This document shows, one piece after another, positions 1 to 24,716 of a DNA stretch of 64,000 nt. The DNA lies in contig JAUWZS010000001.1 of the NCBI GenBank assembly GCA_030615205.1, forward strand, positions 143,212 through 207,211. The letters are read 5' to 3'. The translations under genes and the position numbers were made by a program. Origin of the DNA: Candidatus Aenigmatarchaeota archaeon (GTDB lineage Archaea > Aenigmatarchaeota > Aenigmatarchaeia > CG10238-14 > SCSR01). The number at the start of each line of letters is the position of its first letter. The first letter of the stretch is position 1. A model generated the notes under the pieces. It did not search any database. It was given only the letters and a program-made list of their open reading frames with translations, and was not told where the DNA came from.

Positions 1-97
1 CTCCAAGAACGAAGAACCAATAGCCGAGGATTGCTACTACAGCTATGCCAAGCAGTAAAGCTATTATATAAGGTATTGGAACTGCTCCCTTGCTCAT
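1..97 (-). CDS. Partial (5' end only) pilin-like protein, N-terminus MSKGAVPIPYIIALLLGIAVVAILGYWFFVLG; runs off the window edge
   Basis: ATG at 95-97 (minus). Short N-terminus + KG|A + about 22 hydrophobic residues, the class III signal pattern. Co-directional with the pilin-like genes upstream. Confidence 0.4.
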   Translation of the reverse strand, partial: MSKGAVPIPYIIALLLGIAVVAILGYWFFVLG

Positions 98-174
98 CTT
101 TTAATTCACCTTAAAATTAATTTTGTATTTTAGTATATTAAAGATTTAATTTATTGCTTTTATCCAATCATTTT

Positions 175-1488
175 TCATTGTAGCACACAGCAACATGTTG
201 CTGGATATTCTGTACAATCTAATGGATATTCATAGCATTCATAACCATCTGTACAATCGCTAGGACGATCACAAGTTCCACCGACATCTGCACAAGATAA
301 AACTACTGGACATTTTACCGGATCTGGATAACAGTTAGCAGTAGCTGTGGGATTACCACACACACACCCCCACCCACAACATACACTACAGGTTGGAAAT
401 GGTTCACCTGTATCAATACAAGATCCTCCTACTGTACAAGAATGGCAATCCCAGCATGCTGGACATATACCACAACAACAAGATGCTATTGCTTCATCAC
501 ACCAAAGACGATCCCCGACATAAGTATATTTCATGCTAAAAATGAATGTCCCTCCCAATGGTAATCCCTCCATACCAATAAAAGCCACTTTGAGTGCATA
601 CCCCCCTTCTAGATACCAAATATGAGATATCGGTGGTTTATACTTGTACGATATCCGAGTTTCATCTTTATCATTTATCAGAACAGCGACACTACGGGAA
701 GTGGCATCCCAATTTTTGTAAGTGAACTTGACTTTGTAATCAGAGTCTTCTATACATATTCCTCTATCAGCAGTACCTATATCCATTATAGCCGGAAGCT
801 TTATTTCTTTTTCTACATTTTTTTCGAGGGTTATATCACAAGGAGTATGATCACAAATCATAGTAGCTATGCATGTAACACCTGCGCTACAAGCATCTGG
901 CCAATAGTGATCTTCGCTCCATAAATAGAAAAGCCCATTAGCAGATATTGTACAACTATCATATTCTACTCCTTCTCTGCCAACAGTTTTTATCGAACAT
1001 TCTGAATCTTCGGGAAAAATTAAGTTATCATCACTATACCTATATCCACGACCGACAGTACAATCTGTTTTAAATAACGTGTTGTGACTATTTCCAGTAA
1101 CTACATCCCACCATGCATCTGTTATTGTTACACTATCCTCTAAAGTCACTTCAATTGGAAACCGCTTGGCATTCTCCCCACATACTTTATTATCTGGCCT
1201 AAATTCTGCAGGAAGTGCGCTGCAAAAATCTGAGCAATCTAAAAGATCGCTATCGACTGAATTTTCTGCAACAGCGCATCCATCCTTGCATCTGTAATAA
1301 GAACATTTTATAGCTTCTGTAAATTCGTCCCTATATTCTACTCCAAGCAAGGCTTTGATGTATTCTGTAATAGCCCCTACGTTGTTAAAAACATAAAACC
1401 CAAGTAATAACACTCCAATTATGAGACCTAACCAAATAGTTGTTGCTACTGCAACTCCTTTACGCATCTTTTTATTTTTCAAACTCAT
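175..1488 (-). CDS. Large Cys-rich secreted/pilin-like protein (437 aa) with class III signal-peptide-like N-terminus
   Basis: N-terminus MSLKNKKMRKG|VAVATTIWLGLIIGVLLLGF. Shares the EAIKCSYYRCxxGC motif with the next ORF. C-terminal ~110 aa hold about two dozen Cys, including CCC runs. Confidence 0.75.
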   Translation of the reverse strand: MSLKNKKMRKGVAVATTIWLGLIIGVLLLGFYVFNNVGAITEYIKALLGVEYRDEFTEAIKCSYYRCKDGCAVAENSVDSDLLDCSDFCSALPAEFRPDNKVCGENAKRFPIEVTLEDSVTITDAWWDVVTGNSHNTLFKTDCTVGRGYRYSDDNLIFPEDSECSIKTVGREGVEYDSCTISANGLFYLWSEDHYWPDACSAGVTCIATMICDHTPCDITLEKNVEKEIKLPAIMDIGTADRGICIEDSDYKVKFTYKNWDATSRSVAVLINDKDETRISYKYKPPISHIWYLEGGYALKVAFIGMEGLPLGGTFIFSMKYTYVGDRLWCDEAIASCCCGICPACWDCHSCTVGGSCIDTGEPFPTCSVCCGWGCVCGNPTATANCYPDPVKCPVVLSCADVGGTCDRPSDCTDGYECYEYPLDCTEYPATCCCVLQ

Positions 1489-1539
1489 ACGCCTAATATT
1501 AATTCGAATTTTGGATTTATTAAAAATTAGTCTATCGCT

Positions 1540-2421
1540 CTATGGTAAGGTTACTGTTGGGCTGCACGCCCCATCAACACAGATTGTTCCTGCAGGACAA
1601 CTAGTATCAGCCGAACCTACACATGAATCGCCAGTCGGGTTGCACATGTATTCTCCTATATTATTAGCGGGTAAACAAGTATCAGTGTAAGAACCGGTTG
1701 GATCAGTACAGGTTCCCTTTACCAATTTATTATCTCCGCCATCTGTATCAGTGCACGCTGCAGGAGATTCGGTAGTAACAGAGGTGTCTTTTGTTCCTAA
1801 TATGCCCCATGGATAACTCCAAGACCAAACGTAATATGTACCAGGCTTTATTACTAGTGATTCATAATTGTCACCAATCATATGAAGCCCTCGGCATATA
1901 CCCTTACCAATTTCTTGCTCTACATCATCTTTATCAACTATTACTACTATTCGATCACCTCCTAAAACATTAGTATAATCCACTTGGCTCATCAAACAAT
2001 CTGTAAATTCGATTTCATTCATATAAACTGCAGTTTCTTCGATTACTTGCACCTTAACAGGGTGACCCTTGGCCTGATCGTCACAAACTTTCGCCGTTTC
2101 ATCGTACCACTCTGAACATGGACAATTAGCATCTGTTAAATGCTGCCATGTCATAGCGTTAACATAATCGCATCCTTCCGTGCATCTGTAATAAGAACAT
2201 TTTATAGCTTCTACCATTTCCTCTCCAGATGCCCATTCTCCATTCCCTTCTCCATTTTCTCCTGGTATTCCTAATGCATAAAATATGCGCGTTGCCGCAT
2301 CTACCAAACCTGGCGCGTAAAAAATAGCAAGGTATATTCCAAAAGCAAAAATAACTATGCCAAGGAATAGAAATACTAGATAACGTGTTGCAACTCCTTT
2401 ACGCATCTTTTTATTTTTCAA
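1540..2421 (-). CDS. Cys-rich secreted/pilin-like protein (293 aa), paralog of 175..1488 in the N-terminal part
   Basis: N-terminus (TTG)KNKKMRKG|VATRYLVFLFLGIVIF; an ATG start is possible at 2406. Carries the EAIKCSYYRCTEGC motif. C-terminus has a CTDTDGGDN...C...C...DGAC module. Confidence 0.75.
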   Translation of the reverse strand: MKNKKMRKGVATRYLVFLFLGIVIFAFGIYLAIFYAPGLVDAATRIFYALGIPGENGEGNGEWASGEEMVEAIKCSYYRCTEGCDYVNAMTWQHLTDANCPCSEWYDETAKVCDDQAKGHPVKVQVIEETAVYMNEIEFTDCLMSQVDYTNVLGGDRIVVIVDKDDVEQEIGKGICRGLHMIGDNYESLVIKPGTYYVWSWSYPWGILGTKDTSVTTESPAACTDTDGGDNKLVKGTCTDPTGSYTDTCLPANNIGEYMCNPTGDSCVGSADTSCPAGTICVDGACSPTVTLP

Positions 2422-2445
2422 TGTCTACCGACCTCGGGACTTGCT

Positions 2446-2715
2446 CTAGCACCCTAAAAGAGGTCCTATAACCGGCCAATTCAAAACTGGTATTTGGTTG
2501 CATATCATTCTTTTGAATCCGCTAATCAAATTTTCTACTGCATTAGTAACTAGAGGCATCGTATCTGTTAAAAACAACCAAACCAGTATCAAAGCTGCAA
2601 CAGCAAAGACAAGGCTGACTACCATCGTCAATACCTTTCCACTCACACCTTTTTTGCCAAGCGGTCGCATATCCATTTGCACCTGCACGTTCATTTGCAT
2701 GCTCGTACAACCCAT
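2446..2715 (-). CDS. Small pilin-like protein (real start probably MDMRPLGKKG.., near 2670-2676)
   Basis: RPLGKKG|VSGKVLTMVVSLVFAVAALILVWLFL fits the class III signal pattern. Same strand and operon as the platform and ATPase genes. Confidence 0.5.
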   Translation of the reverse strand: MGCTSMQMNVQVQMDMRPLGKKGVSGKVLTMVVSLVFAVAALILVWLFLTDTMPLVTNAVENLISGFKRMICNQIPVLNWPVIGPLLGC

Positions 2716-2725
2716 AATATTATTT

Positions 2726-2887
2726 TTATCCTAGAACTTCTTTAATAAACAGGGCTTCAATCAGCTTACGGGCCCCGCCAAAAAACAAAGCGATTATCAC
2801 TACTATCAAAATCAAAAGCACTATGGCATAAAGTATGTAGCGGTCCACATCTCCTTTTTTTCCGACAATTTTCCATCCGAACTTCAT
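2726..2887 (-). CDS. 53-aa small membrane/pilin-like protein, below the ORF-track length cutoff
   Basis: Hand translation: MKFGWKIVGKKGDVDRYILYAIVLLILIVVIIALFFGGARKLIEALFIKEVLG*. It lies directly downstream of the platform gene. The track ORF 2766..2948 in another frame looks non-coding. Confidence 0.4.
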   Translation of the reverse strand: MKFGWKIVGKKGDVDRYILYAIVLLILIVVIIALFFGGARKLIEALFIKEVLG

Positions 2888-2899
2888 TGCGATACGACC

Positions 2900-4882
2900 T
2901 CAGACTAAACCTGTTATTGGTATAAGCGACACAAAAACAGAATAACATACCACCATTACGACTGAATAGATTGCGATGGCTAATAAAAGGGTCTTGCCGA
3001 GTTGCAGGCGTTTCAGCAGGCTTTCATCACCATGTTCTATTATACTAAGAAAGATCGCGATCATACCAACGACTTCCATCATGTAAATACTCACGATCAA
3101 TTGGAATGTCTGGACAGACATCATCTTGTCAAGATTTACAATAGAAGTGAACATCCCACTGCCTGCAGCACCAAGCGGACCAAATTCTCCTAGATTGCCG
3201 TATATTTTTTCTATAACGCCTTTGAGCATAACAAGCATTCTCATTATCATGGCTGAAAGCGCAACAACTATGCCTGATGACAAAGGTGCAAGAAGTATTG
3301 CTTGCATCTGCATTGTTGACGTGACTTCTCCGAGCATTTCTTTAAGATATTCTTCCACATCGTGCGAGTCCCTTAGATAATTGGAGATCGTTATCATCGC
3401 TTTTGAAGCAGTGACCATGCCACGCTTTGAAATCTCAACAATCGCATGCATCACTGCATTTATGAGCTTTGATGGGTATTCTCGAATTGCACCGGAGTCT
3501 TTGTCAAACACTGCCTGTTCAAGCGTCATCCCAAAAGTCTCTATGTTGTATAGTATCTTTTCGAAAAACTTTGATATTTTCAGGTTCTTGATTTGTGGAG
3601 TTATACTTTTCAATGCTGTTTCAAGAGGTATGCCCCGACTTATTTGGTTTCCTAGCTGAAAGAGCACCCCTGCAAACTCGCTTTCGATTTTCACAACCTC
3701 TGTACGCAGTTTGATTTTCCTAATGGCTGATAGAATACAATAAGAAACTACTCCGAAGCTTATCCCTAGTGAGACAATCAAAGAGTGGATAAGCTGCTCT
3801 ACGCCGAAAAATTCTGTAGCTATCAGTATCTGGTATCCGCCAAACGCAACAAAAGGAACAGCCACTGCTATTCCTATAGCAGGGAACAACCACTTCTTCT
3901 CTGCACGGAACTTTGGATGCCTAGTTATGTCCGGCTGGTGAAAACCATATGGCCTCTTGTCAAGATACGATTTCATGATCCAATAAACCACAAGAGGGAG
4001 CATTATATTGTAACCGATTATTATGAAGATTGGCTGTATGCCTTCTGGCATGAAAACCGCCATCATTGGGAGAAAGACCAAACCAATAATAGGAAGAAGT
4101 ATGCCCAATGCATTCAAAACCATCACTGGCGTTTTCAAATCTTGCGCGTAATGCTTCATCCGCTCGCGTGTGCCCTGAAGCATAACTGATACAGCCTCGT
4201 CCAGAACACGCTCACGCCGAGTTGCACTTTCAATTGTCGATGTTTTGATAAGGTATAGCGCTTCTGCGAATTCATCATTTTCCCGTTTCCACTTTTTGAT
4301 GAAACTATCTAGTGCGACTGAGGCAGAATCAAATTTGCGTAAGTAAATGTCCCATAACAGCTGATGTAAATCTTCGCTTAATGCACCTCTGAGGTTGTCT
4401 GCTGCAAACTTGATTGCGTTTTCTATATTCGCACTCACCCGCATAGATATTGTCATGTAGACTATTGACAGAACCATCTCAGAACTGGCTTTTATACGGA
4501 ATATAACTGCAAAGTGGAATGGATAATCATAAAGATAGTAGAATATCACTACGCCAAGAACACCTATAACCATGATCGTAGCTAATGAGAACAGATTTAG
4601 AAAAACAGTTATGATTGTTGGTACTGCAACAGCCAAGATTGTTGCCAAAATTATTAATGAAAAGGCACCGCGTGGGCTAATTTTCAAATGGCTGAATTTT
4701 ATTGCTTCGTAATATTTGTCTATCAAGCTTTTCCACGGCGAAATCGGCAGAATCTTTTCAGAAATGCCACATAATTTTTCATATAGTGAAAGTGATATGA
4801 CCTTCGCTTCGCCTTTCAAAAACTCTTCATACTCTTTGGAGTGCATAGCAGGTATGTTTGCCCTTGTTGCCATTTCCCTCAC
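2900..4882 (-). CDS. FlaJ/TadC/PilC-type polytopic membrane platform protein of a type IV filament system
   Basis: 660 aa with alternating soluble helical domains and TM bundles. The start (GTG 4880-4882, or ATG 4873) overlaps or abuts the ATPase stop, the canonical ATPase-platform pairing. Confidence 0.75.
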   Translation of the reverse strand: MREMATRANIPAMHSKEYEEFLKGEAKVISLSLYEKLCGISEKILPISPWKSLIDKYYEAIKFSHLKISPRGAFSLIILATILAVAVPTIITVFLNLFSLATIMVIGVLGVVIFYYLYDYPFHFAVIFRIKASSEMVLSIVYMTISMRVSANIENAIKFAADNLRGALSEDLHQLLWDIYLRKFDSASVALDSFIKKWKRENDEFAEALYLIKTSTIESATRRERVLDEAVSVMLQGTRERMKHYAQDLKTPVMVLNALGILLPIIGLVFLPMMAVFMPEGIQPIFIIIGYNIMLPLVVYWIMKSYLDKRPYGFHQPDITRHPKFRAEKKWLFPAIGIAVAVPFVAFGGYQILIATEFFGVEQLIHSLIVSLGISFGVVSYCILSAIRKIKLRTEVVKIESEFAGVLFQLGNQISRGIPLETALKSITPQIKNLKISKFFEKILYNIETFGMTLEQAVFDKDSGAIREYPSKLINAVMHAIVEISKRGMVTASKAMITISNYLRDSHDVEEYLKEMLGEVTSTMQMQAILLAPLSSGIVVALSAMIMRMLVMLKGVIEKIYGNLGEFGPLGAAGSGMFTSIVNLDKMMSVQTFQLIVSIYMMEVVGMIAIFLSIIEHGDESLLKRLQLGKTLLLAIAIYSVVMVVCYSVFVSLIPITGLV

Positions 4883-7125
4883 TATATTTTCAATTTCTTT
4901 TTAAACCAGTTTTCCCATTTTTCAAAAATTATCTTCGAGTCCAAGCTTCCGATCTCTTTCTTAACGCTCTCAGATATTATGTGGAACATTTCATTGCCCT
5001 CTACTGTCCAATCTGCTTCGAGTATCTCCGGTCTGCCCAAACGATTCGCATAGTTGAGCATGGCCTCTTTTATTTTCGCACGTAGTTGTATGTTGTCCCA
5101 AATATCATCCCACCGACCATGCCATTCACGGACGCGCTCAGCAATTCCATTCAGCACTTCTGATTCGCCGTCTGTAAGCACAGGCGTCGGTTTAAGCCTA
5201 TCTTCTTTTGCAGAGTATTTCATTAAATCCACGAACCCGCCTTCTAAATCTGGGTCTTCTTTCCAATTTTTCCTTACTTCTGTAAGCGCTGTAACCCGGC
5301 GGAATCTATGCAGACCGTCTGGGCTTCTAAGCATACTGCATATTGTGATAAGGTCTATTGCTTTGAAGCTTGTATTAGGCACGCCGAGGTCGTTCACAAT
5401 TCGATCATAAACACCATAGGCAGACTCGCCATGTATTGTACCGCCAACGAAATTCGCAAGCGCGCCAATTCTCATTGCCTCGAACAATGCCTTGCCTTCC
5501 ACGCTTCTGACTTCGCCGAGAATCAAAACAGAATCGCCCAAACGTAAAGCAGTGCGCAGGGCTTCATCAGCCGGCAGTTCTGTTTCCACACGCGTTATAA
5601 CAGACCGCGACTTTAACCGCTCAATATTATAGCCCGCTTGACGCATCTGAACAACAGGAAGCTCTAAAGTGTCTTCTTGCACAATCATACGGAACTTTCT
5701 CATAACCTCTAACATCATTGCGCCGAGCAGCGAGGTCTTTCCAGAGCTTCTGCCTCCAGCTATCAAACATGCACGGCCGCCGTCGATTATAAAACTCATC
5801 AATCCAGCGTAGAGCGGATCGAAAAATTTCACTTTCAAAAACAGTGGGAAAGTCCATGGCCTCTCTCGATGGCGTCTGAATGTAAATGCAAGTCCTTCAG
5901 GCGAAAGTGTACGTGTTATCGCTGCTACACGTGCGCGACCGCCTGGCACCGTCAGTTCGGTGTCAAGCACTGGATTTGCTTCATCAAGCGGCCGGCCTGA
6001 ATAAAGCCTGAAACGTGTTGCCCAAGCCTCTGCATCTTCCTTTGTAGGAATAAGATTGGTCTCACATTCTTCAAAATCAGAATGGTAAATGTATATCGGT
6101 GTAAGTCCGATTGGCGAATTTACATGGACATCCTGTATTTTGTCGTCGCTCAATAGTAACTCGAGCACACCAAATCCGGCTGTGTAGCGTGCGAGTATTG
6201 TTGCCAGTTCTTCGATCTCTTCAGCGTCTAATGAAACATTCATTCTTCTGGCAAGTTCATGTATAAGATCTCGACCGATGTTTTTGAATATGGCCCGCGA
6301 CTGTTCTGGTTCTGCGATCTCTCTTTCGCTCGGCCTATGCTCTGCGAGGTAACGGCGGGCTGCATCAAGGATCGTATACTTTTCCTCTGTCAGCTTGAAT
6401 TCAGCAGGGGTTATGTGGTATATGTATCTGACACGAGTGGGTACTTTAAAAATCTCGACTAGCGTGTTTCCGATATAATATTTTTCAACAAGCCTGCCTG
6501 TTTTCGGTGGGACAAGCATGAAACGAGTAAGCATGAAATTCGGTCTGACAATAGGATGGAAAATATCTCTGTATATAGATCTGTCTCCTGGTTTACGCGT
6601 CTTAAGTGTGGGTTTTGCTAGCTGTATGAGTTTACACGATTCTAAAATTATTCTTATTGGCTCTAAGGCATGCTGTATGTAGTATGCATAGCACTGCTTT
6701 CTTTTTGTGCTTCGAGCAGATGTCATGCTTGATTTTTCGCGCAGTATCATCATTTTTATTTGCAAGTAAGCTCCAATCGGATCTTTACGCAGAACTTCTA
6801 AAATCAAGAACTGGAGTTCAGCTAGTCTTCTTGGATAAAATTCTTCACACCCGGCTGGTCCAAGTTTATCTAATGAAAGAAGCTTATCAACATTGAGAAT
6901 CCTATTAAATGCATCTGCTATTTCTATAAGCATCTTCGTTTGCTCAAAGTCGTACTCGTTCTCTCTTGTTTCTGCAAGCACGATGCGAGTGACGCCTTTA
7001 TTCTTTATGAGCTTGTCAATCGTTGTTGCCATGCACGCTTCAAAGTCTTCTATGCTTGATCCATATACGCATCCTAAACAGTTCACACGCAAAGTATTAT
7101 TCACTATTTCAGATTCACATACCAT
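4882..7125 (-). CDS. Type II/IV secretion-family ATPase (FlaI/PilB/VirB11 superfamily) with a long N-terminal extension
   Basis: Walker A AGGRSSGKTSLLGAMM. Typical GSPII_E-like core (..LILGEVRS.E...F.AM..G..). 747 aa. Confidence 0.9.
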   Translation of the reverse strand: MVCESEIVNNTLRVNCLGCVYGSSIEDFEACMATTIDKLIKNKGVTRIVLAETRENEYDFEQTKMLIEIADAFNRILNVDKLLSLDKLGPAGCEEFYPRRLAELQFLILEVLRKDPIGAYLQIKMMILREKSSMTSARSTKRKQCYAYYIQHALEPIRIILESCKLIQLAKPTLKTRKPGDRSIYRDIFHPIVRPNFMLTRFMLVPPKTGRLVEKYYIGNTLVEIFKVPTRVRYIYHITPAEFKLTEEKYTILDAARRYLAEHRPSEREIAEPEQSRAIFKNIGRDLIHELARRMNVSLDAEEIEELATILARYTAGFGVLELLLSDDKIQDVHVNSPIGLTPIYIYHSDFEECETNLIPTKEDAEAWATRFRLYSGRPLDEANPVLDTELTVPGGRARVAAITRTLSPEGLAFTFRRHRERPWTFPLFLKVKFFDPLYAGLMSFIIDGGRACLIAGGRSSGKTSLLGAMMLEVMRKFRMIVQEDTLELPVVQMRQAGYNIERLKSRSVITRVETELPADEALRTALRLGDSVLILGEVRSVEGKALFEAMRIGALANFVGGTIHGESAYGVYDRIVNDLGVPNTSFKAIDLITICSMLRSPDGLHRFRRVTALTEVRKNWKEDPDLEGGFVDLMKYSAKEDRLKPTPVLTDGESEVLNGIAERVREWHGRWDDIWDNIQLRAKIKEAMLNYANRLGRPEILEADWTVEGNEMFHIISESVKKEIGSLDSKIIFEKWENWFKKKLKI

Positions 7126-7232: not shown

Positions 7233-7622
7233 TTGGCGCCCCAATCCAAAGAATCAAATGTACTTACTGAGCTTGTCAGAAGAATAAACGAAGATAGAAG
7301 AAGGATCAGGCTTATAGAGCAGAGCGTCAACCGAGTAGAACAAAACCTAAGCTCTATTGAAGAGTCTGTCATTTCGCAAATGGGTGACTTGAAAATAAGT
7401 CTTGATCGCATTAATAACAAGCTTGCATCAGCAGCCGAAAGACTAAGCATGATAGAAAGCGATATAGCCAGGTTGAATAAACAGACAAGTAAAAGTGCGA
7501 CAAGAATTGAACTCAAACAAATCGAGAGCTTTATAGATCTTGTGAATCCAATCACATCGAAATTTATAACAAAGGATGAACTTGAAAGGGCACTCGACGA
7601 AAGATTAAAAAGAAAAATCTGA
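7233..7622 (+). CDS. Coiled-coil protein, unknown function (129 aa, TTG start right after an in-frame stop)
   Basis: Heptad-like charged sequence (LTELVRRINEDRRRIRLIEQSVNRVEQNL...). The opposite-strand ORF 7229..7555 is Leu/Ser-rich, as expected for an antisense shadow. Confidence 0.6.
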   Translation: MAPQSKESNVLTELVRRINEDRRRIRLIEQSVNRVEQNLSSIEESVISQMGDLKISLDRINNKLASAAERLSMIESDIARLNKQTSKSATRIELKQIESFIDLVNPITSKFITKDELERALDERLKRKI

Positions 7623-7778: not shown

Positions 7779-8576
7779 ATGCAATTGCCTTTTTTTGGGA
7801 AAAAGAAAGCTGAAGAATCTAAGGGCAGAGGCTATGTTCCTACAGATAGAGTAAGGGAGCTAACAGGTAAAGGTTTTTCTGAGCTAGACGCGATTGATGC
7901 GCTTAGACGCGAAGGGTTTTCGCCAGATGAGATAGATAAAGCTCTCACACAAGCTGTGAAAGAAGGGGTTGTCGGCAATAGCAGAGGAGCTGGTGGGCTT
8001 AGAACTGGCGGTTTTGTTGAACCATCTATGCAACCAGTCCAGTCTTCCCAGGATTTTGATCAAGCTTATCAATCGTTCAGGCAACAAGAAAGACCGACAC
8101 CTAGTTTTCCACCAAGAAAAGAGGCATCTGAAGAGAAAGGGAACGAAGAAGGGCCTGTATTAAAACTGCCGACAATTGAAGAACTTCAGCCGCATAAAGG
8201 AAGTATGCCGTCCATGCCTGAGACATCATTGCCTGAGGAATACTATCAAAGTTATCCAACTGAAGAGTACGTTGATTACGCTGTTCAAGAGAGGACACAA
8301 GATATAATTGAGCGGATGAACATACTCGCAATAAGAAACAGAGACTTGGAAAATAGGATAAAGGAAATGAACGAGCGGGTTCGTGAGCTCGGAAAGGGTC
8401 GAGCCAACGAACAGCAGCAGGTCTTAAGCAGCGTAGAAACACTTAAAGAAACTGTAAACGATGTAAATATCCGAATGGCAAGTTTAGAAAAGGCATTCAA
8501 AGAAACACTTCCAGCACTCATAGAATCTGTGCGTGCATTGACCGACCTTGTCCAGAGATTGAAAAGAGAATCTTGA
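7779..8576 (+). CDS. Protein with N-terminal UBA-like helical hairpin, low-complexity linker and C-terminal coiled coil; unknown function
   Basis: VRELTGKGFSELDAIDALRREGFSPDEIDKAL resembles the UBA/TS-N pattern (helix-GF-helix-G-helix). The C-terminus is heptad-rich (RNRDLENRIKEMNERVRELGK...). Confidence 0.65.
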   Translation: MQLPFFGKKKAEESKGRGYVPTDRVRELTGKGFSELDAIDALRREGFSPDEIDKALTQAVKEGVVGNSRGAGGLRTGGFVEPSMQPVQSSQDFDQAYQSFRQQERPTPSFPPRKEASEEKGNEEGPVLKLPTIEELQPHKGSMPSMPETSLPEEYYQSYPTEEYVDYAVQERTQDIIERMNILAIRNRDLENRIKEMNERVRELGKGRANEQQQVLSSVETLKETVNDVNIRMASLEKAFKETLPALIESVRALTDLVQRLKRES

Positions 8577-8635: not shown

Positions 8636-9019
8636 ATGGAAGAATACGATGTAATTAATTTCTTTTCACAATTATTCAATTTACCATCTAGGTTCTTCAA
8701 ATTTCCAGATACTATATTCTATTTCATAATCCCATTCATCGCATTGGTTTTTCTTTTTTACACTCTGCTCAATAAAAAATTAAGAATATTCAGGAGCACT
8801 GGCATAAATCTGATAATAGCAATTATGATATCTTTTTTCAGTGCAATGGTAATAGCCATCTTCCCTCCGTCTTGGACAGTCAGCATGGTTATCGGATGTG
8901 CCATCTTAGTGATGGGTAGATTTACGCTCAAGAGGCTCGCAATCACCGGAATTATTTTTATACTAATTCAATGGGGTTATCCTTTGGTTATGAATTGGGT
9001 TATGAATTTAGTTTTATAA
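8636..9019 (+). CDS. Paralog 1 of a six-member small polytopic membrane protein family (127 aa)
   Basis: Core FYFIIPFIALVFLFYTLLNKKLRIFRSTGINLIIAIMISF matches the family motif phi-PF-phi(10)-L-x-K/R-x-x-phi-F-G/R ... N-x-phi-I-A/S. Confidence 0.7.
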   Translation: MEEYDVINFFSQLFNLPSRFFKFPDTIFYFIIPFIALVFLFYTLLNKKLRIFRSTGINLIIAIMISFFSAMVIAIFPPSWTVSMVIGCAILVMGRFTLKRLAITGIIFILIQWGYPLVMNWVMNLVL

Positions 9020-9097
9020 AATCAGACCTTTTGATAGATGATAGACTATTTTAGTAAAAGGTTTAATAATTTAAGACCCTAATAAATATTAGTTAAG

Positions 9098-9727
9098 ATG
9101 TTTAAGAAAATTCAGTTGCTTACAATTTTAACTGTCTTGTTTTCGCTGCCATGCTTAGCAATAGCAGCAAATGATTTTGAGGCACCTGATATAAGCGCTG
9201 GGCTCATTACAGTAGTGGAAGTTTTCTTTGGCCCAGGTGCTGAGGCGTATACGGCAAATCCAGTACAAATTCTACAATTTTTGATATTCCCGTTCATCGC
9301 TCTATGGGCCGTGCTTTTCGGTATATTAATAAATCTTAGAATCTTTCGCTATCAAAACTGGCTTAATAGCCTGCTCTCGTTTTTGATTGCTGTAATAGCA
9401 GGCCCAACAGGTGGACTTGTATGGCTTGTAAGAACAGTATTTGTGCTTATGGGCGGGTGGGGATTTATAGCATTTGCTGCTCTATTCTTTATTGGAGTTG
9501 GGGCCTGGCTCCTTAGTGGTGTGATTAGATTCGGGCAACCTCTCTCAAAATATTTCAGTAAAGCTGGGCGTTTGGAAGATGAAATATACATAATTAGGCA
9601 ACAATTAGACGCAGCCAGAGCTGCTGGTGCGCCTGTTACACCGCTTCGCAATAAATTAGAAAAAAAGATTAGAGAGTGGGAAAGAGCTAAAAGAAAAATA
9701 ACAGAAGAGCATCGTGCTGGAAGTTAA
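9098..9727 (+). CDS. Paralog 2 of the membrane family, with cleavable-looking signal peptide and C-terminal charged coiled-coil tail (209 aa)
   Basis: MFKKIQLLTILTVLFSLPCLAIAAN... then FLIFPFIALWAVLFGILINLRIFRYQNWLNSLLSFLIAVIAG. Tail is RNKLEKKIREWERAKRKITEEHR. Confidence 0.7.
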   Translation: MFKKIQLLTILTVLFSLPCLAIAANDFEAPDISAGLITVVEVFFGPGAEAYTANPVQILQFLIFPFIALWAVLFGILINLRIFRYQNWLNSLLSFLIAVIAGPTGGLVWLVRTVFVLMGGWGFIAFAALFFIGVGAWLLSGVIRFGQPLSKYFSKAGRLEDEIYIIRQQLDAARAAGAPVTPLRNKLEKKIREWERAKRKITEEHRAGS

Positions 9728-9743
9728 AATATTTTATTATTAT

Positions 9744-10547
9744 TTAATGACCAACTCTGTGGTCGCCTGCAGTTCCGGCATCTCCTGGAATGGCTCTTAT
9801 TTTTCGTATTCTGTATTTAAACCATCCGGGGTCGTTACCTAAATCGCCAATAGGTTTTCCTCCTGCATCTTTTTTGCCGAATATCTTTTTAACGTCTTTT
9901 GGATCCATTTCCAATCTCAAATCTTTTTCAAAAAAATCAGCCGCAAATTCTTCAGTATCTTTGGCTATTTCAACTTTGAATTTTGCAAAACCACCTGGCA
10001 ACCCTGAATTTATTTCAATCGTATCGCCAGTTTTCAAAAGCCCCTTCTTTTTGCCTTCCAGTCCCTCGTTTATACCTTCCACAAGATTATCTTCATATCC
10101 GAAAAGTCTACGAGCAGGAGTATAGATGTTGTATAAGAGTATCTGCCAAGCTCTACCAACAGTAATCACACCTTTTTTTGGCTCTGCTCTTGTTTCTGTT
10201 CTCGCTCCTCTTGCTTCGGCCGGTGTCGTAAGTTTAATCGGTTTTCTGACGCTCTCCAAGTTCAGAGCGCCAAGCATTTCCTGAGTTACTGCGTATATCT
10301 CTTTCGGTTTTATGCCTTCCATTAGATAAGTGCGACCCTCTTCTATATGCTCATAGAATATGTCTGTTATTCTTTCGAGTTCAGAATAATAGATAGGTCT
10401 AGTTTCTTCTCTGTCATGCTCAAGAAGAGATTCCTTTCTTACGGCCCTTATTAGTCTCCGTACTTCTGGAGACACATCAGACCACATCAGGTAATTTGTA
10501 ATCTCAGTCCAACACGAATCCATACTACTACTAATAAATAGTAACAT
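9744..10547 (-). CDS. Hypothetical soluble protein (267 aa) on the opposite strand, interrupting the membrane-protein array
   Basis: Long ORF with ordinary amino-acid composition. No motif recognised. Confidence 0.6.
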   Translation of the reverse strand: MLLFISSSMDSCWTEITNYLMWSDVSPEVRRLIRAVRKESLLEHDREETRPIYYSELERITDIFYEHIEEGRTYLMEGIKPKEIYAVTQEMLGALNLESVRKPIKLTTPAEARGARTETRAEPKKGVITVGRAWQILLYNIYTPARRLFGYEDNLVEGINEGLEGKKKGLLKTGDTIEINSGLPGGFAKFKVEIAKDTEEFAADFFEKDLRLEMDPKDVKKIFGKKDAGGKPIGDLGNDPGWFKYRIRKIRAIPGDAGTAGDHRVGH

Positions 10548-10642
10548 ATTTAAACCTTTGGAGATGCCTTTGCTGTATCACAGCTTCGGATGAATTGAGA
10601 TTGTCGAATTATAATTTTACCTTTAAAAAACAATTATTAAAT

Positions 10643-11122
10643 ATGGCTTTATTCGATATCGATCTGCTGGGCGCCAGTGCAATTGATTTTGCTAATATGA
10701 CACCGTACGAACTTGGGAGAAACGTGTTTTTGCCGTTTATTTTGGTATTTGTGATCCTTTGGGTTGTCCTTGAGAGGATCCATGTATTCGGTAAAAAAGT
10801 AAACATAATAATCTCTCTCGGAATAAGCATATTGCTTGCTACTACGCCTGCATTTACAATGTTCTCAACTTACATTACAGAAGTTAGCGGAACTAGTATG
10901 CTTGTAATATTTGGAATTTTATTGATCGGTGGTACAGCTGTTTGGGCACTTAGTCGGGGCAGAGACATATACTATGAGCAAGCTGCGCCGGAAAAGAAGA
11001 TTATGCAACTTGAAAAGAAAATAGAAAAGGCGAGGAGAAAAGGACGTATACAAGCTGCAGAAGCGTTGGAAAGGGAGAAAAGACAGTGGGAACATAGAAT
11101 GAGGGAAAAATACAGACGATAG
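10643..11122 (+). CDS. Paralog 3 of the membrane family with C-terminal charged coiled-coil tail
   Basis: ATG at 10643; the track ORF starts at TTG 10595. Core VFLPFILVFVILWVVLERIHVFGKKVNIIISLGISILLA. Tail is EKKIEKARRKGRIQAAEALEREKRQWEHRMREKYRR. Confidence 0.7.
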   Translation: MALFDIDLLGASAIDFANMTPYELGRNVFLPFILVFVILWVVLERIHVFGKKVNIIISLGISILLATTPAFTMFSTYITEVSGTSMLVIFGILLIGGTAVWALSRGRDIYYEQAAPEKKIMQLEKKIEKARRKGRIQAAEALEREKRQWEHRMREKYRR

Positions 11123-11205
11123 TTTTTGAATAAAAAGTAAATTCAGACAAACTTAAATTTCTCGCAAACGAAAATTAATTTAGTGTTGGCTTATTGGTGG
11201 GTTAA

Positions 11206-11730
11206 ATGGCAAACGTGTTTGAGACTGTTGTGCAAAAACTCATAGAAGTTGGTTTTTACGACCTTCTAATCTTTGTGATTTCGCTGACGATTTTTTATGC
11301 TATTCTAAGAAAGGTAAAGATTCTAGGAGAGTCACCTGTTGTAAATGCTGTCCTTGCGTTTTCCATAGCTTTTCTAATATTCGGTTTTCCGGTAATAGTT
11401 GGGTTTAGTCTCACGCTGCCGCTCGTGTCGTTTTTCACACAGTCCTTTGTTTGGATATTGGTATTTTTTATTGGTTTTCTAATAGCAAGTTTCTTTTATC
11501 CGGATTTGCCAAAATTCTTGGCTGAGAAGTTCACCAGCAGAAGCATGATAAGCATCGCAATCACGATTGGATTTGTAAGTGTAATTATAAGCGGGTTGAT
11601 AGGTGTCTTATGGGCAACTCCGCCAGGAGCAGGAGGTATTCAACTACCATTTGACACAGTAATTACTGCTGCTGGTGTGATAATATTTATTATATTAATT
11701 ATAGTTGCTGCTTCGATTGCAAAGGGATAA
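11206..11730 (+). CDS. Paralog 4 of the membrane family (174 aa, about 5 TM)
   Basis: MANVFETVVQKLIEVGFYDLLIFVISLTIFYAILRKVKILGESPVVNAVLAFSIAF. Confidence 0.75.
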   Translation: MANVFETVVQKLIEVGFYDLLIFVISLTIFYAILRKVKILGESPVVNAVLAFSIAFLIFGFPVIVGFSLTLPLVSFFTQSFVWILVFFIGFLIASFFYPDLPKFLAEKFTSRSMISIAITIGFVSVIISGLIGVLWATPPGAGGIQLPFDTVITAAGVIIFIILIIVAASIAKG

Positions 11731-11732
11731 AA

Positions 11733-12296
11733 ATGACAAGTCCATTTGAAACAGTCATATTAAACATGAGAGAAACTGGGATGTTCCAATTCTTATTGCC
11801 ATTTATGCTCAGCTCTGCAATATTCTACGGTTTGCTCAGAAAATCACAAATTTTTGGAGAACCAGTTCGTTCAGTCACAATAAACGCAGTTATTGCACTT
11901 GTAGCATCGTTCATGGTGTGGTCAGCGCCAGTACTGCTTGGGATGGATATAGAAATGCATCTCGCATCGTTCTTTGTTCAAGGTATAAGTGTTACACTCA
12001 TAGTTATGGTGGGTTTGATGGTTGTTGGCATGATTGCACCTCCTAATCTGCCAGCACATTTCGAAAAAGTTTTTAAAGACAAGCCCAAAGTCTGGATGGC
12101 CATTCTTATCGGCGGTATTTTGGCTGGGGTTATACTAGCAATATCAAGCGGTTTGATGACTATTTATTTCCCTCAGTTAGGATTAGATGGTGTGGGGGTT
12201 GGGCTACCAGTTTTGTCTGAAGATGCTATTATGACTTTAGGAGTCGTATTGTTACTAGTGATAACAATTGTGTTGATTGTTGCTTTGATTAGATAA
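11733..12296 (+). CDS. Paralog 5 of the membrane family (187 aa, about 5 TM)
   Basis: MTSPFETVILNMRETGMFQFLLPFMLSSAIFYGLLRKSQIFGEPVRSVTINAVIALVASF. Starts 2 nt after paralog 4. Confidence 0.75.
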   Translation: MTSPFETVILNMRETGMFQFLLPFMLSSAIFYGLLRKSQIFGEPVRSVTINAVIALVASFMVWSAPVLLGMDIEMHLASFFVQGISVTLIVMVGLMVVGMIAPPNLPAHFEKVFKDKPKVWMAILIGGILAGVILAISSGLMTIYFPQLGLDGVGVGLPVLSEDAIMTLGVVLLLVITIVLIVALIR

Positions 12297-12372
12297 AAAC
12301 AATTTAAAAAATAATCTGGTACGTGCAAAAAGGATTTGAATAATAAAAAAGAAAATAAATATAGGTAATGAA

Positions 12373-13008
12373 ATGGCAGGATTCACGCTGATAGCAGATC
12401 TGGTCGCTGCTGGAAAGGAGTTTGGAATATTCGAGTTCTATCTGCCATTTGTAATAATGTTTGCAGTATTTTGGGCTATTTTGACAAAGATTAAACTTTT
12501 CGGAGATCCGTATGGCGACGATAAAAAACAAGCAAGGATGGCGCGAGGTATCAATTTAATCATATCATTGGGCGCTTCGCTGTATATAATGGCCAATACG
12601 GCCATAGGATTGAGCTTTGCTACATTTCTATCTGCACTTTTTGGTGGAACATTCATGGTAATACTTACAATAATTGCATTCACAGCTGTTGTTTATGTTG
12701 CAGCGTCAGTAGCTAAAGGTGGGGATCCACTTGTAGACACACCAAAATGGAAATATCTTGCAGCACTCACTGTATTAGCAGCGATAATATTTGCTTTAAG
12801 TGTCTATATTTCTAGTTCTGGTACAGCAATATTTCCAGGCTTCGTTCTCCCTGGTTTTGAAGTACCATCTATTCCAACTATCGCACTACCATCAATAGGA
12901 TTAGCTTCACAAGATTTAGCAATAATTTTCCTGGTTGTAATCACTGGTTTAATAATATTCTATGTTACGTGGGGAGGCAAGGGAGAAAAACCAGCAGCAA
13001 CAACGTAG
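12373..13008 (+). CDS. Paralog 6 of the membrane family (211 aa, about 5 TM)
   Basis: EFGIFEFYLPFVIMFAVFWAILTKIKLFGDPYGDDKKQARMARGINLIISLGASL. Confidence 0.75.
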   Translation: MAGFTLIADLVAAGKEFGIFEFYLPFVIMFAVFWAILTKIKLFGDPYGDDKKQARMARGINLIISLGASLYIMANTAIGLSFATFLSALFGGTFMVILTIIAFTAVVYVAASVAKGGDPLVDTPKWKYLAALTVLAAIIFALSVYISSSGTAIFPGFVLPGFEVPSIPTIALPSIGLASQDLAIIFLVVITGLIIFYVTWGGKGEKPAATT

Positions 13009-21948: not shown

Positions 21949-22046
21949 TCTCTATCACTCTAGAATAAATAATGAAAAGTAAAATTTATTAATCTTTCTA
22001 TTCCCAGAACAAAAACAGGAAGTGGGATTTAAATCTGACATAGAGG

Positions 22047-22331
22047 TTAAGCTAAATCTGTTATAAATGTCTTCATTTTATACAAAAGCTCTGTCGGAGT
22101 TGCAAATCTTGCCATCACTGGAGTTTCTTTACCTGTTCCTTTAAGTTTAGTTTTTATAAAACCATATCTTTCTAAAACCCTCAAGTGGAAATTAGTTACG
22201 TTTGTATCATATCCTAATTTTTTTGCTATTTCACCTATGAACATTCCAGAAGTTTCTAATAACATTCTCGCAATGTCATATCTCTCAGGTTGAGTTACTA
22301 CATGCATTTGAAATATTTCCTGTTCTTTCAT
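22047..22331 (-). CDS. Winged-helix (ArsR-like) transcription regulator
   Basis: ARMLLETSGMFIGEIAKKLGYDTNVTNFHLRVLERYGFIKTKL. ATG at 22331; the track start 22373 is TTG. Confidence 0.7.
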   Translation of the reverse strand: MKEQEIFQMHVVTQPERYDIARMLLETSGMFIGEIAKKLGYDTNVTNFHLRVLERYGFIKTKLKGTGKETPVMARFATPTELLYKMKTFITDLA

Positions 22332-22430
22332 AAAAAGAAGATAGATAAATAAACATTTAAGCCCTATTCCCAAAGAACAAAAATCTATCTGGTTCTATTG
22401 ATAACGTTATTAAAGATATGTTAGCTATTA

Positions 22431-23138
22431 GTGATTATGCAAAGGGATTTCCGAAAGGACTGGAGAGAATATCCAGCAGATAAAATTCCGTCCAAAAATA
22501 AATTGCCTGATTTTTTATTTGAATTATTAAAAAAAGAACAAGTTAAAACAGTATTGGATTCGGGTTGTGGGGTTGGAAGGTCTGCTATAGATCTTTATCG
22601 AAGAGGATATTCAGTTGTTGGAGTGGATATTAACCAAAAAGCAATAGAAAAAGCAAAGGCAGAAGCACAAAAAATTATTGATCCACCTTCCGACAATTTC
22701 TTGAGGTTTTATGTAAAGGATATAACTGATTTACAACTGGAAGAAGCACCATTCGATGCTGTTTTAATGCAATTAGTGATATCGTTGATTGGGGATGTAG
22801 ATGATAGAAAAAAACTATTACAGATGAGTAGAAAATTAATAAAACCTGATGGGATTCTTTATCTCTCTGCTTCTGGAGTATCGGATGATATTAACCCAAA
22901 ATATGAAGAAACATATAAAAAGGATTTTCCGATAACTGGAGAAATGTACACTTATTTATCAAGAGATTCTGAAGGGAGAGTCTTGTATGCCACTCACCAT
23001 TTTACAGAAAAAGAACTAAAAGAATTGTTACAAACTGGATTTAAAGAAATCAAAATAATAAAAAAGAAGGAAATGAGTAGTAGAAGACCTGACGAAGTGG
23101 CTTATTTCTTCTATGCAACTGCAAGAGCAAAAGTGTAA
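22431..23138 (+). CDS. Class I SAM-dependent methyltransferase
   Basis: VLDSGCGVGRSAIDLYRRGYSVVGVDIN (motif I and post-I). The first ATG is at 22437. Confidence 0.85.
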   Translation: MIMQRDFRKDWREYPADKIPSKNKLPDFLFELLKKEQVKTVLDSGCGVGRSAIDLYRRGYSVVGVDINQKAIEKAKAEAQKIIDPPSDNFLRFYVKDITDLQLEEAPFDAVLMQLVISLIGDVDDRKKLLQMSRKLIKPDGILYLSASGVSDDINPKYEETYKKDFPITGEMYTYLSRDSEGRVLYATHHFTEKELKELLQTGFKEIKIIKKKEMSSRRPDEVAYFFYATARAKV

Positions 23139-23211
23139 GATAACTAAAAAATCGAGTGAAAATCTATCTGATTCTGGTTGATTTAAATCTTTTCCTATCA
23201 ATATCTAAAGT

Positions 23212-23601
23212 ATGAAAACTCCGAGTGAAATTTTCTCCAAAGCATTCACCGCTTATAAAATTGTTAAGGGTTTGTATTACGAAGGGAATGATGTATACAC
23301 GAATCGAAATGGTAAAAAAGTTTGGTTCGGAACAAGTGGTCTTCTTCATGAAGATGATAACCCACTTTGTTCTTTAATAGGGTTTAGAGAGTTTGATGCT
23401 TTCGCAGCTGGATATCTTAGTGGTTGGGAATATTTATTATTGGGTGATATCAAACCCCTCTATAGGTATGTTGTTACCAGATTTTCAGGACGTTTGAAAA
23501 AAGCATTCGAAGTTGGAGAAGTTGCAAGAAAAGTTGGATTCTTAGAAGCTCGTGATAAGATGAATGATATTAAGAGATTTGATCGGCCAGAGTCTGATTA
23601 A
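23212..23601 (+). CDS. Hypothetical protein (129 aa)
   Basis: ORF only. Confidence 0.5.
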   Translation: MKTPSEIFSKAFTAYKIVKGLYYEGNDVYTNRNGKKVWFGTSGLLHEDDNPLCSLIGFREFDAFAAGYLSGWEYLLLGDIKPLYRYVVTRFSGRLKKAFEVGEVARKVGFLEARDKMNDIKRFDRPESD

Positions 23602-23647
23602 ATTAGGATACTTTTCTAACCATTCTATTTTTAAGAAAACTAAAAGA

Positions 23648-23824
23648 TTATCTTCTTCTGCGACTTTCAATATATCTTCTAATAGTTTGGATGCGTCTTT
23701 CCGGTACATCATCTAACATCGAGTGTCTAGAACCATACGGGCCTCTTACAGTCCGGCGATTTTTAATGATCTCAGTCCCTTCATCATACTCTTCAACAAG
23801 TCTGGGATCAACAAATCCTGACAT
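23648..23824 (-). CDS. 58-aa Arg-rich small ORF, below the ORF-track cutoff
   Basis: Hand translation: MSGFVDPRLVEEYDEGTEIIKNRRTVRGPYGSRHSMLDDVPERRIQTIRRYIESRRRR*. GC is noticeably higher than in the flanking spacer. Confidence 0.35.
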   Translation of the reverse strand: MSGFVDPRLVEEYDEGTEIIKNRRTVRGPYGSRHSMLDDVPERRIQTIRRYIESRRRR

Positions 23825-23888
23825 AATTTAATAAGTACAGTTAGAGATTTATATCCTCGTAATAGGATAAACCTTTATCGGCGAGTAC

Positions 23889-24023
23889 ATGTGGGGATAT
23901 GCTTACATAAACTGCGACAAATGCGGCAACAGGCTGAAGATACGGCTCGGCCAACGAACACGAAGATGTCCTTATTGTGGTAAGCAAGTTAAAGTTGCTG
24001 GTAAAGTTAAAGAGAAAATATAA
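23889..24023 (+). CDS. 44-aa zinc-ribbon protein (CxxC...CxxC), below the ORF-track cutoff
   Basis: Hand translation: MWGYAYINCDKCGNRLKIRLGQRTRRCPYCGKQVKVAGKVKEKI*. Resembles small archaeal Zn-ribbon proteins. Confidence 0.5.
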   Translation: MWGYAYINCDKCGNRLKIRLGQRTRRCPYCGKQVKVAGKVKEKI

Positions 24024-24045
24024 TAATTGTGAATTTTTTAATTCC

Positions 24046-24693
24046 TTATTTGTTTAAAATACACTCTGCCCAATGTTTTAGGAATTTAATATAATTTTCT
24101 CTATCGTCTATTGTAACTTCTATTTTTCTAGAACCCGTTTTTTTATTTAAGTTCACTTCGATTAAACCTTTTTTTCCAGATAACTTAATATCTATCCAAT
24201 CGTCTCCAAGTTTTCGATCTCGCAATATTAGTTCAAATGCGTATTCATATGTATTTTTAACAAAAATTTCTGTATAAAGTAAGAATAGATTTGCCACATC
24301 TAAAAAATCCTCGACTTGATCACGTATAGGTTTTTTGAATTCGTGTTCCAACTCATTCCTTTTTCTATTTATCTTAGTCAATATTCGTGGTGCTACTATT
24401 CCAGTCTTAAGTAAGAAGTCTATTTTATCTGGAAAAGTCCAGCCCTCTTTTTTAGCTTTCTCATACAGCCCAAACAGGTATAAGAGGGATTCTATTCTAC
24501 AATCTATGCTTCTTTTAATGTTAGAAAGTGAATTAACTAGAGCTTTTTCTGTATCTTCTTTCAAGTCATCTTCGGCAAATTTTATAAAATCTTCTGGTTT
24601 AAGCTCGAATGGTAAATCTAAGGGTTCGTCAGACCAACTATCAACTCCTTTAATCAAATCTTTTCTTTCTAAGAATCCTAGCATTTCCTGCAT
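24046..24693 (-). CDS. Candidate HEPN-domain protein (215 aa, all-helical, RNxxxH motif)
   Basis: R-N-E-L-E-H at residues 112-117 (nt 24343-24360) in the context ILTKINRKRNELEHEF, which fits the Rx4-6H HEPN signature with a polar residue after R. Confidence 0.45.
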   Translation of the reverse strand: MQEMLGFLERKDLIKGVDSWSDEPLDLPFELKPEDFIKFAEDDLKEDTEKALVNSLSNIKRSIDCRIESLLYLFGLYEKAKKEGWTFPDKIDFLLKTGIVAPRILTKINRKRNELEHEFKKPIRDQVEDFLDVANLFLLYTEIFVKNTYEYAFELILRDRKLGDDWIDIKLSGKKGLIEVNLNKKTGSRKIEVTIDDRENYIKFLKHWAECILNK

Positions 24694-24716
24694 ATCTTAA
24701 GTAATGATGTTTATAT

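Follow-up and report, generated by a model that had tools for sequence, protein, structure and literature searches.

What kind of surface machine is encoded at one end of a 64-kb stretch of Aenigmatarchaeota DNA, and what part two large, cysteine-packed proteins may play in it, is the question raised by positions 1-7125 of that stretch (the window, which here means the whole 64 kb; all genes of the locus lie on its minus strand). Aenigmatarchaeota are tiny, probably host-dependent archaea of which, to our knowledge, no member has been cultured, and DPANN archaea are believed to spend their lives fixed to other cells by contact molecules that are largely unknown. It is probable, judging from sequence comparison, that the genes form a type IV filament operon, with the two large proteins, members of a family here designated F1, acting as modular minor pilins that show binding modules. 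The evidence comes from the assembly machinery, from the signals of the proteins encoded behind it, from the conservation of the whole gene order in related genomes and from the architecture of the large proteins themselves.

The Walker A stretch of the ATPase, GGRSSGKTS, which had been pointed out in an earlier sequence-only reading, lies within LIAGGRSSGKTS. This protein matched Pfam T2SSE (E=1.1e-10) and, through residues ~273-619, the A. fulgidus GspE structure 2oap (4e-25), CpaF (6e-19) and FlaI (9e-14) in the PDB; the NCBIfam models for FlaI and TadA also matched, with scores under their cut-offs. It is a secretion ATPase of the PilB/GspE/FlaI/TadA family carrying a Walker A motif. An N-terminal extension of ~285 residues (window 7125-6270, minus strand) lies beyond all PDB matches and opens with four Cys (C3, C16, C19 and C31), and variable Cys-rich N-terminal domains have been mentioned for archaeal pilus ATPases (PMC4858521). 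The platform gene follows at once: the TAG stop of the ATPase gene (4884-4882) and a GTG (4882-4880) have one base in common, as had been read at 4880-4884. The platform start is probably the ATG at 4873, nine bases past the GTG and with GAGGG ahead of it, and the two genes abut whichever start holds. The platform protein gave a weak match to Pfam T2SSF in two stretches (E=0.0019; 18.6 bits against a gathering score of 25.2) and none to PDB sequences; its size, its many hydrophobic segments and its kept position after the ATPase are consistent with a FlaJ/TadC/PilC-like protein. Relatives of the ATPase were found at 73 loci in species-representative genomes with 55-87% identity, and most of the loci with a named phylum belong to Aenigmatarchaeota metagenome-assembled genomes (MAGs) from hot springs, groundwater and sediments. 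At 57 related loci the platform gene lies directly 3' of the ATPase gene (55-74% identity).

Five open reading frames (ORFs) follow the platform gene on the same strand, separated by 12-77 nt, and all five begin as the sequence-only reading had described, with a short basic stretch, a Gly and a hydrophobic segment. In each of them Lys at -2 and Gly at -1 precede at least 20 hydrophobic residues, a class III-type signal pattern known here from the sequence. Positions Lys -2 and Gly -1 are reported to be decisive for substrates of the archaeal class III signal peptidase, in which Glu5 is often absent (PMC3387779); by these criteria the operon encodes subunits with class III signal peptides at the motif level. 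Behind the ATPase and platform genes there is thus a series of genes for class III-signal proteins, which supports the earlier assignment of the locus to the type IV filaments.

The smaller proteins of this run recur at equivalent positions elsewhere. The mature part of the 53-aa protein (family F5) is scarcely more than one helix, and its homologues at seven loci keep the motif KG/D-V-x-R-Y (a slash marks the presumed cleavage site). Family F2 homologues occupy the next position at 14 loci. The open frame of the F2 gene (an 89-aa ORF) stretches over 2715..2446; its start is probably the Met at ~2670, because homologues begin with MGSKG, MSRKG or MKSKKG. The fifth ORF, of family F0, starts at 97 (MSKGAVPIPYIIALLLGIAVV...) and is interrupted by the window edge. 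In related loci the F0 genes occur in two to four copies at this position, encode proteins of 90-130 aa with 4-8 Cys and start like MKKG/AVPVPYIIALLLGI. The F0 proteins are the likely filament-forming pilins, and the window F0 protein is a candidate major pilin. When F0 was compared with the large F1 family by hhalign, the N-terminal segment alone aligned (probability 95%, 29 columns). The apparent link is limited to the N-terminal signal and helix, which is typical of type IV pilins yet the weakest kind of homology.

The order of genes after the platform gene recurs in many related loci. A tiny protein of 40-55 aa lacking Cys (F5 or F7) comes first, followed by a ~70-aa protein with 2 Cys (F2), a large Cys-rich protein of 221-844 aa (F1), the F0 genes, three mid-sized proteins (F3, F4 and F6) and a second large protein, which reaches 1027 aa with 85 Cys. 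Where 6 kb or more of downstream sequence is available, the median is nine pilin-like genes per locus, and 17 of the 30 related loci with enough downstream sequence have a pilin-like gene whose product reaches at least 250 aa and 3.5% Cys. Large Cys-rich pilin-like proteins are the norm for the Aenigmatarchaeota operon and no oddity of one genome; the size and Cys content that had been called unusual are real, and it is the rarity that falls away.

Nor is the operon confined to 1-7125, where the genes described do lie: it continues past the left edge of the window, and this range holds only the promoter-proximal half. The rest of the operon of the same genome is very probably contained in a Logan contig, L074, that was reached through the protein P0006. 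The first seven bases of this contig equal the last seven of the reverse strand of the window, and the F0 frame runs on; P0006 is recorded on a contig of 402,006 bp, as are the proteins of the window itself. Positions 1-4332 of L074 represent the continuation past window position 1, with a gene order that matches loci L001 and L006, and add the rest of the window F0 gene, two more F0 genes, F3, F4 (P0006), F6 and a 454-aa protein with 18 Cys. Together with L074 the operon comprises ~11 pilin-like genes, two of them tiny. A convergent gene (L074 4347-6065, minus strand) closes it and encodes a 572-aa protein with an N-terminal zinc-ribbon (CxxC...CxxC) and membrane segments, in a position kept in L006 and L001; zinc-ribbon membrane proteins also adjoin Sulfolobus bindosome loci (Makarova et al. 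2016, PMC4858521). As a separate observation, two L074 proteins, the first F0 pilin (1-309) and the 454-aa protein (2968-4332), have the ending ...PIPSP in common; as a possible sorting signal this ending was not found in the other loci.

In the window the F1 gene is present as a tandem pair (293 and 437 aa), and the same arrangement is found in operons of the same type with P0004 (locus L075; 216 and 473 aa) and P0002 (locus L077; 327 and 759 aa). Protein similarity alone led to P0004 and P0002, yet their genes lie directly downstream of ATPase and platform genes. An absence of such linkage for homologues of the Cys-rich proteins had been named beforehand as a possible refutation, and for these two the linkage held.

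Both large proteins stand apart in composition. The 437-aa protein contains 38 Cys (8.7%) and the 293-aa protein 16 (5.5%), against a pooled content of 1.06% and a maximum of 4.9% in the 53 other genes of the window. The last 115 residues of the longer protein hold 24 Cys with two CCC runs, and the shorter one ends in a CTDTDGGDN...DGAC module; both features had been read from the translations and were recovered. The two are paralogues through residues 1-205 (29% identity, E=1e-15) and unrelated beyond, and neither has an N-x-S/T sequon. In the 437-aa protein a leader, MSLKNKKMRKG/ (residues 1-11), is followed by a hydrophobic helix (12-47), a helical Cys module (55-109), two beta domains (112-323) and a Cys-rich tail (327-437). 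In the 293-aa protein there are a signal of class III type, a long helix, the conserved Cys module (EAIKCSYYRCTEGC...), a beta-rich body and, at the C-terminus, the CTDTDGG module.

An exhaustive HMMER search with the 437-aa protein against 1.84 billion protein representatives returned 84 relatives, which places the family at ~80 representatives. Most of these matches, in proteins of 155-836 aa, cover residues ~8-125; a few span residues 1-322, five match only the last 40 residues, and residues 325-395 had no match in that search. Word-index protein searches found few relatives (seven for the 437-aa protein, two for its N-terminal profile and six for the 293-aa protein). In an 81-sequence alignment five Cys (C62, C67, C85, C89, C103) are invariant and three more (C71, C143, C164) almost invariant, and most full-length members begin directly with M-x-K-G and the hydrophobic stretch. 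The members follow one plan, in which a class III-type signal and a long helix precede a conserved module of 8 Cys and a C-terminus that is Cys-rich and variable. An AlphaFold2 model of the 437-aa protein built on this alignment (predicted local distance difference test score, pLDDT, 71; predicted template modelling score, pTM, 0.61) was confident for residues ~10-330, with a helix at 14-47, the helical Cys-containing module at 55-109 and two beta domains at 112-323; with an alignment of eight sequences the model was unusable (pLDDT 40). The large proteins also diverge fastest, in agreement with an exposed position. Relative to the closest relative, L001, identity is 87% for the ATPase, 74% for both the platform and the 53-aa protein, and 58% for the product of the 89-aa ORF; for the large protein it is 37%, and only the first 250 residues can be aligned.

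What the C-termini carry differs from member to member. Pfam domains were recognised there in a minority of the F1 proteins (beta/gamma-crystallin in four; beta-propeller, CBM_11 and Big_1 in one each), and most have none. Copies of the CTDTDGG module were found in P0046 and in P0002, two in the second large gene of L046, and three in tandem in P0087, a C-terminally anchored protein with a Sec signal. The CCC module (36 residues, 8 Cys) was found in nine proteins at ~70-80% identity. Its pilin-type carriers are P0003, P0026 and L023_8601, which are F1-type with the module at the C-terminus, and P0006, where it is inserted, at 81% identity, into an F4 family otherwise lacking it. Carriers other than pilins are P0005, P0007 and P0081, with dockerin-like repeats and a Sec signal, and also P0030 (209 aa), in which the module stands right after a Sec signal and the C-terminal half matches Pfam T4SS_pilin (E=8e-10), so that the CCC knot is borne by proteins of two unrelated surface-filament types. 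When scanned in isolation, neither the CCC nor the CTDTDGG module matched a Pfam or NCBIfam family; the best match of the latter, to the Pfam EB module, was insignificant (E=0.064). The 70 residues ahead of the CCC module (CCCGICPACWDCHSC...) are an orphan stretch, and weak tblastn matches of the Cys-dense stretch upstream of ATPase genes in L022, L059 and L019 were judged to be compositional artefacts.

Displayed or adhesin-type minor subunits would be expected to combine a conserved N-terminal body with exchangeable C-terminal modules, as these proteins do, and as far as architecture goes the adhesin-type role suggested by the sequence-only reading is borne out. The interpretation of the locus as a filament operon draws on what was observed directly: gene content, synteny, conservation of motifs, the modular plan, the spread of modules to non-pilin proteins and the even Cys counts described below. 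According to this interpretation, the ATPase and the platform protein would assemble subunits held in the membrane by their N-terminal hydrophobic helix, from which a class III signal peptidase would have cut off the short basic leader ending in Lys-Gly. The subunits of this genome would be, in order, a tiny and a small pilin-like protein, the two large tandem paralogues, three small Cys-containing F0 pilins as the likely filament-building subunits, three mid-sized pilin-like proteins and the second large protein. The leader, helix and conserved 8-Cys module of F1 would form a carrier for docking into the filament or its base, at the tip or as a minor subunit, and the C-terminal parts would be exchangeable, presumably disulfide-knotted modules facing outward. 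These most likely bind a ligand, which may sit on a surface or on the cell of a partner or host.

Several results weigh against this interpretation. Neither the window nor ~1.1 Mb of related flanks (74 loci) yielded a prepilin peptidase in a search for the GxGD[..][KR] motif together with a count of transmembrane segments, to which a Pfam scan of the window ORFs was added that reached 47 kb, the transmembrane and GxGD motif checks covering what lies beyond. Class III signals were scored with an ad hoc and noisy motif heuristic, which has a sizeable background of 2.4-3.8 ORFs per 6 kb in three control stretches, although it still gave 7.35 per 6 kb on the same strand downstream of the platform gene (23 related loci). 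After the first helix, the AlphaFold2 model is a helical Cys bundle and not the classic helix-on-sheet pilin fold, and the Cys-rich tail (327-437) was modelled at pLDDT <50. A Foldseek search of the PDB with the model, run with the whole multi-domain query, which lowers sensitivity, returned no pilin and nothing at E<0.001. The pilin-like proteins matched no pilin family of Pfam, NCBIfam or the PDB: Pilin_N, Class_IIIsignal, DUF361 and the NCBIfam models found nothing among them, 40 F0 proteins and 81 F1 members, and F1 and F0 profiles gave nothing significant against PDB sequences. Pilin chains 8fj5, 8qqj and 6w8u came up at E 0.28-7.1, among transmembrane-helix noise.

Some of these observations would suit a short, surface-embedded scaffold resembling the Sulfolobus bindosome (Bas) or a pseudopilus, in which the large class III-signal proteins are functional cargo held at the surface for binding or envelope organisation, with no long filament or tip. 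In the bindosome, functional proteins that are not pilins use class III signals together with an ATPase and a platform protein dedicated to them (PMC3387779). The locus shares with it the dedicated ATPase, the platform and small pilin-like proteins that would handle large class III-signal proteins; the pilin-like genes are unusually many, with two tiny ones, the large proteins lack a pilin fold past the first helix, and the ATPase weakly matches the BasE model. That match, however, reached 41.5 bits against a cut-off of 1000, well under the FlaI and TadA scores, and the solute-binding proteins that accompany the BasE/BasF machine have no counterpart here, as neither the large proteins nor their 81 family members contain a solute- or substrate-binding-protein domain. 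Multi-copy small Cys pilins of family F0 are what a filament-forming system needs and suggest a true filament. We consider a scaffold of this type unlikely.

Less likely still is that the large proteins are ordinary anchored or Sec-secreted surface proteins, merely encoded beside a pilus machine, whose KG N-terminus is an uncleaved anchor or a type I signal. The missing matches to pilin families and folds, the negative peptidase search and the background of the class III heuristic would agree with this. Against it stands the strict co-linearity with the ATPase and platform genes over dozens of genomes, which extends to the independently found homologues. The K-G motif is kept at the extreme N-terminus throughout the F1 family, the hydrophobic stretch of at least 20 residues straight after the basic residues is unlike the n-h-c layout of type I signals, and the N-terminal segment is common to the small F0 pilins and F1.

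The Cys residues themselves bear on a last alternative, in which the dense tail of the 437-aa protein, with its CCC runs and a CxxCxxCxxCxxC stretch, binds metal, clusters or haem and forms a metal-stabilised or electron-carrying subunit. CCCGICPACWDCHSC does hold five Cys spaced two residues apart together with one CxxCH, homologues from which the chemistry of the tail might be decided are lacking, and many of the related MAGs come from anoxic sediment, groundwater and hot springs, where extracellular disulfides are less obvious. Among the complete pilin-like proteins of the operon census, the Cys count is even in 127 of 143 and odd in 16 (proteins with no Cys, mostly F3, were counted as even), and both large window proteins are even. 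Since the counts are mostly even, paired Cys and hence disulfides are favoured over metal sites, which leaves the disulfide half of the earlier proposal of disulfide- or metal-stabilised subunits as the favoured one. The single CxxCH (CWDCH; window 450-464, minus strand, residues 345-349) lies in the CxxCxxCxxCxxC run, is expected by chance among four consecutive CxxC pairs and is kept by no homologue, so that repeated, conserved CxxCH or cluster motifs of a multihaem or metal-cluster protein are not present. As the tail Cys pattern is kept in no relative, whereas metal sites usually are, as pilins cross the membrane unfolded through Sec (PMC6098224), so that from knowledge of this pathway cofactor loading before export would be unlikely, and as the window showed no gene for cytochrome maturation or metal handling, a metal or redox role appears highly improbable.

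The interpretation as a filament operon with modular minor pilins may be extended, tentatively and with more doubt than confidence. The C-terminal modules, which evolve fast, could be partner- or host-recognition determinants, cassettes swapped among pilus subunits, dockerin-bearing surface proteins and a T4SS_pilin protein, with the CCC knot as a conserved plug on two subunits of one machine. If this were true, the host range of an uncultivated DPANN lineage could be both read and tested from one operon. That DPANN pili serve host attachment is an idea as old as the work on N. equitans (PMC3387779). The feature itself is real and well conserved, ordinary in kind, and its family is undescribed. 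The operon is among the best conserved surface systems of the lineage, with machinery 55-87% identical over dozens of genomes, and its large exposed subunits diverge fast and exchange modules, which makes them candidates for contact proteins. The carrier domain offers a means of finding more such candidates, and the 8-Cys module, small and highly conserved, could be used as bait. Coordinates are collected in Table 1.

Table 1. Features of the pilus locus and of the adjoining divergent genes (window positions; a slash marks the presumed cleavage site)
Feature	Position	Strand	Basis
Secretion/assembly ATPase, 747 aa, GspE/FlaI/TadA-CpaF superfamily	4882..7125	-	Pfam, PDB and NCBIfam matches
Platform protein, polytopic, FlaJ/TadC/PilC-like, 660 aa	2900..4882	-	Weak Pfam T2SSF match and position after ATPase
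Tiny pilin-like protein, 53 aa, 0 Cys, family F5	2726..2887	-	Signal ...VGKKG/DVDRYILYAIVLLILIVV
Small pilin-like protein, ~70 aa, 2 Cys, family F2	2446..2670	-	Signal ...LGKKG/VSGKVLTMVVSLVFAV
Modular pilin-like protein, 293 aa, 16 Cys, family F1, TTG start	1540..2421	-	ORF and Cys count
C-terminal 6-Cys CTDTDGG module of 293-aa protein	~1755..1564	-	
Modular pilin-like protein, 437 aa, 38 Cys, family F1	175..1488	-	ORF and Cys count
Cys-rich tail of 437-aa protein, residues 327-437	510..178	-	
Terminal 36-residue, 8-Cys CCC module of 437-aa protein, CADVGGTCDRPSDCTDGYECYEYPLDCTEYPATCCC	187..294	-	
Fifth class III-signal gene, family F0, start only	1..97	-	MSKG/AVPIPYIIALLLGIAVV...
Coiled-coil protein, 129 aa, divergent to operon	7233..7622	+	Weak coiled-coil Pfam matches only
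Protein of 265 aa after coiled-coil gene	7779..8576	+	N-terminal helical motif, low-complexity linker, C-terminal coiled coil

The gene for the 129-aa coiled-coil protein adjoins the ATPase gene in 67 of the 73 loci, divergent in the loci listed, and that for the 265-aa protein lies beside it in 63. Apart from the weak coiled-coil matches of the former, the two proteins matched no Pfam family and nothing in the PDB; they may be cytoplasmic partners or regulators of the pilus machine. Further along, at 8636-13008 on the plus strand, six small polytopic membrane proteins are encoded (127-211 aa, 3-6 predicted transmembrane segments, no Pfam family), and three of these genes (11206-11730, 11733-12296 and 12373-13008) recur near the ATPase gene in ~30 related loci. 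The rest of the window is ordinary archaeal chromosome, with ribosomal proteins S3Ae and S15, RadA, RPA, a DHH phosphoesterase and tRNA-Leu. A large glycosylation island (28204-47151; its extent is also given as 35 kb) contains AglB/STT3 (29563-31860), a second STT3/PMT_2-like protein (36537-38174), several GT2, GT4 and GT1 glycosyltransferases, sugar-nucleotide dehydratases and epimerases, a C-methyltransferase and a B12-binding radical SAM enzyme (45835-47151). The G+C content is 0.30-0.35 at 22000-26000 and 50000-64000 and ~0.39 elsewhere, and Pfam recognised nothing in the ORFs at 24046-24693 and 24717-25199. Just past the operon on L074 (6715-10338), genes for AMP phosphorylase, form III RuBisCO and a member of the IF-2B family, to which ribose-1,5-bisphosphate isomerase belongs, stand together in a cluster resembling the nucleotide-salvage pathway of archaea.

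Archaeal type IV pilus loci with large, adhesin-like signal-peptide proteins and conserved Cys have already been described (PMC4858521; bioRxiv 10.64898/2026.04.22.720090), as have DPANN loci with divergent, unrecognisable pilins (PMC6393860). The operon resembles them, and in particular the 'system 2' of bioRxiv 10.64898/2026.04.22.720090, in the extended ATPase N-terminus and the single platform gene, in the many pilin-like genes and large adhesin-like proteins, in Cys proposed to form stabilising disulfides and in pilins that evolve fast and go unrecognised by family models. The focus there is on Thermoproteales, Euryarchaeota and generic cases from DPANN, and we found no publication that describes how the Aenigmatarchaeota operon is laid out, nor one on the F1 carrier family or on the two Cys modules, CCC and CTDTDGG.

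The 11-gene Epd pilus operon of Methanococcus maripaludis, as summarised in bioRxiv 10.64898/2026.04.22.720090, is alike in its length of ~11 genes, in having an ATPase, a platform function, and major and many minor pilins, and in encoding a class III-signal protein with a binding domain, which in Epd is galactose-binding. Epd, a 'system 1' operon, has two platform genes and its own peptidase, whereas here there is one platform gene of 660 aa and no linked peptidase was found; no sequence relationship was detected between the Epd pilins and the pilin-like proteins of the window. The PilY1/PilC tip adhesins with their minor-pilin priming complex offer another likeness, a large modular exposed protein encoded with 4-5 minor pilins and with a proposed tip role. 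PilY1, though, is no pilin and has a C-terminal beta-propeller as its carrier, and in the F1 proteins the carrier is the pilin-type N-terminus.

The closest parallel in design is found in the modular pilins, established for Streptococcus sanguinis PilB and surveyed in bacteria (PMC8179133). Carrying this idea to archaea is an incremental gain that involves no new principle. The F1 proteins differ from the bacterial ones in their archaeal K-G/ leader lacking Glu5, in a carrier with 8 conserved Cys that matches neither IPR012902/N_methyl nor any pilin fold, and in displayed modules that are mostly orphan disulfide-rich mini-domains; tip location and adhesion have been shown for PilB and are putative for F1. 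In common with PilB and PilC of S. sanguinis, CofB and GspK (PMC8179133), they combine a class III signal and a pilin-type carrier with extra modules known outside pilins, and they are large proteins encoded among small pilins in a pilus operon. Lectin- or carbohydrate-binding-type and Ig-like modules, present in the bacterial proteins, also occur in members of the F1 family. A pilin-type N-terminus joined to a module that is also found in non-pilin proteins, the combination by which modular pilins are recognised (PMC8179133), is found here too, the modules recurring in P0005, P0007, P0081, P0030 and P0087 and among the Pfam domains of the F1 C-termini.

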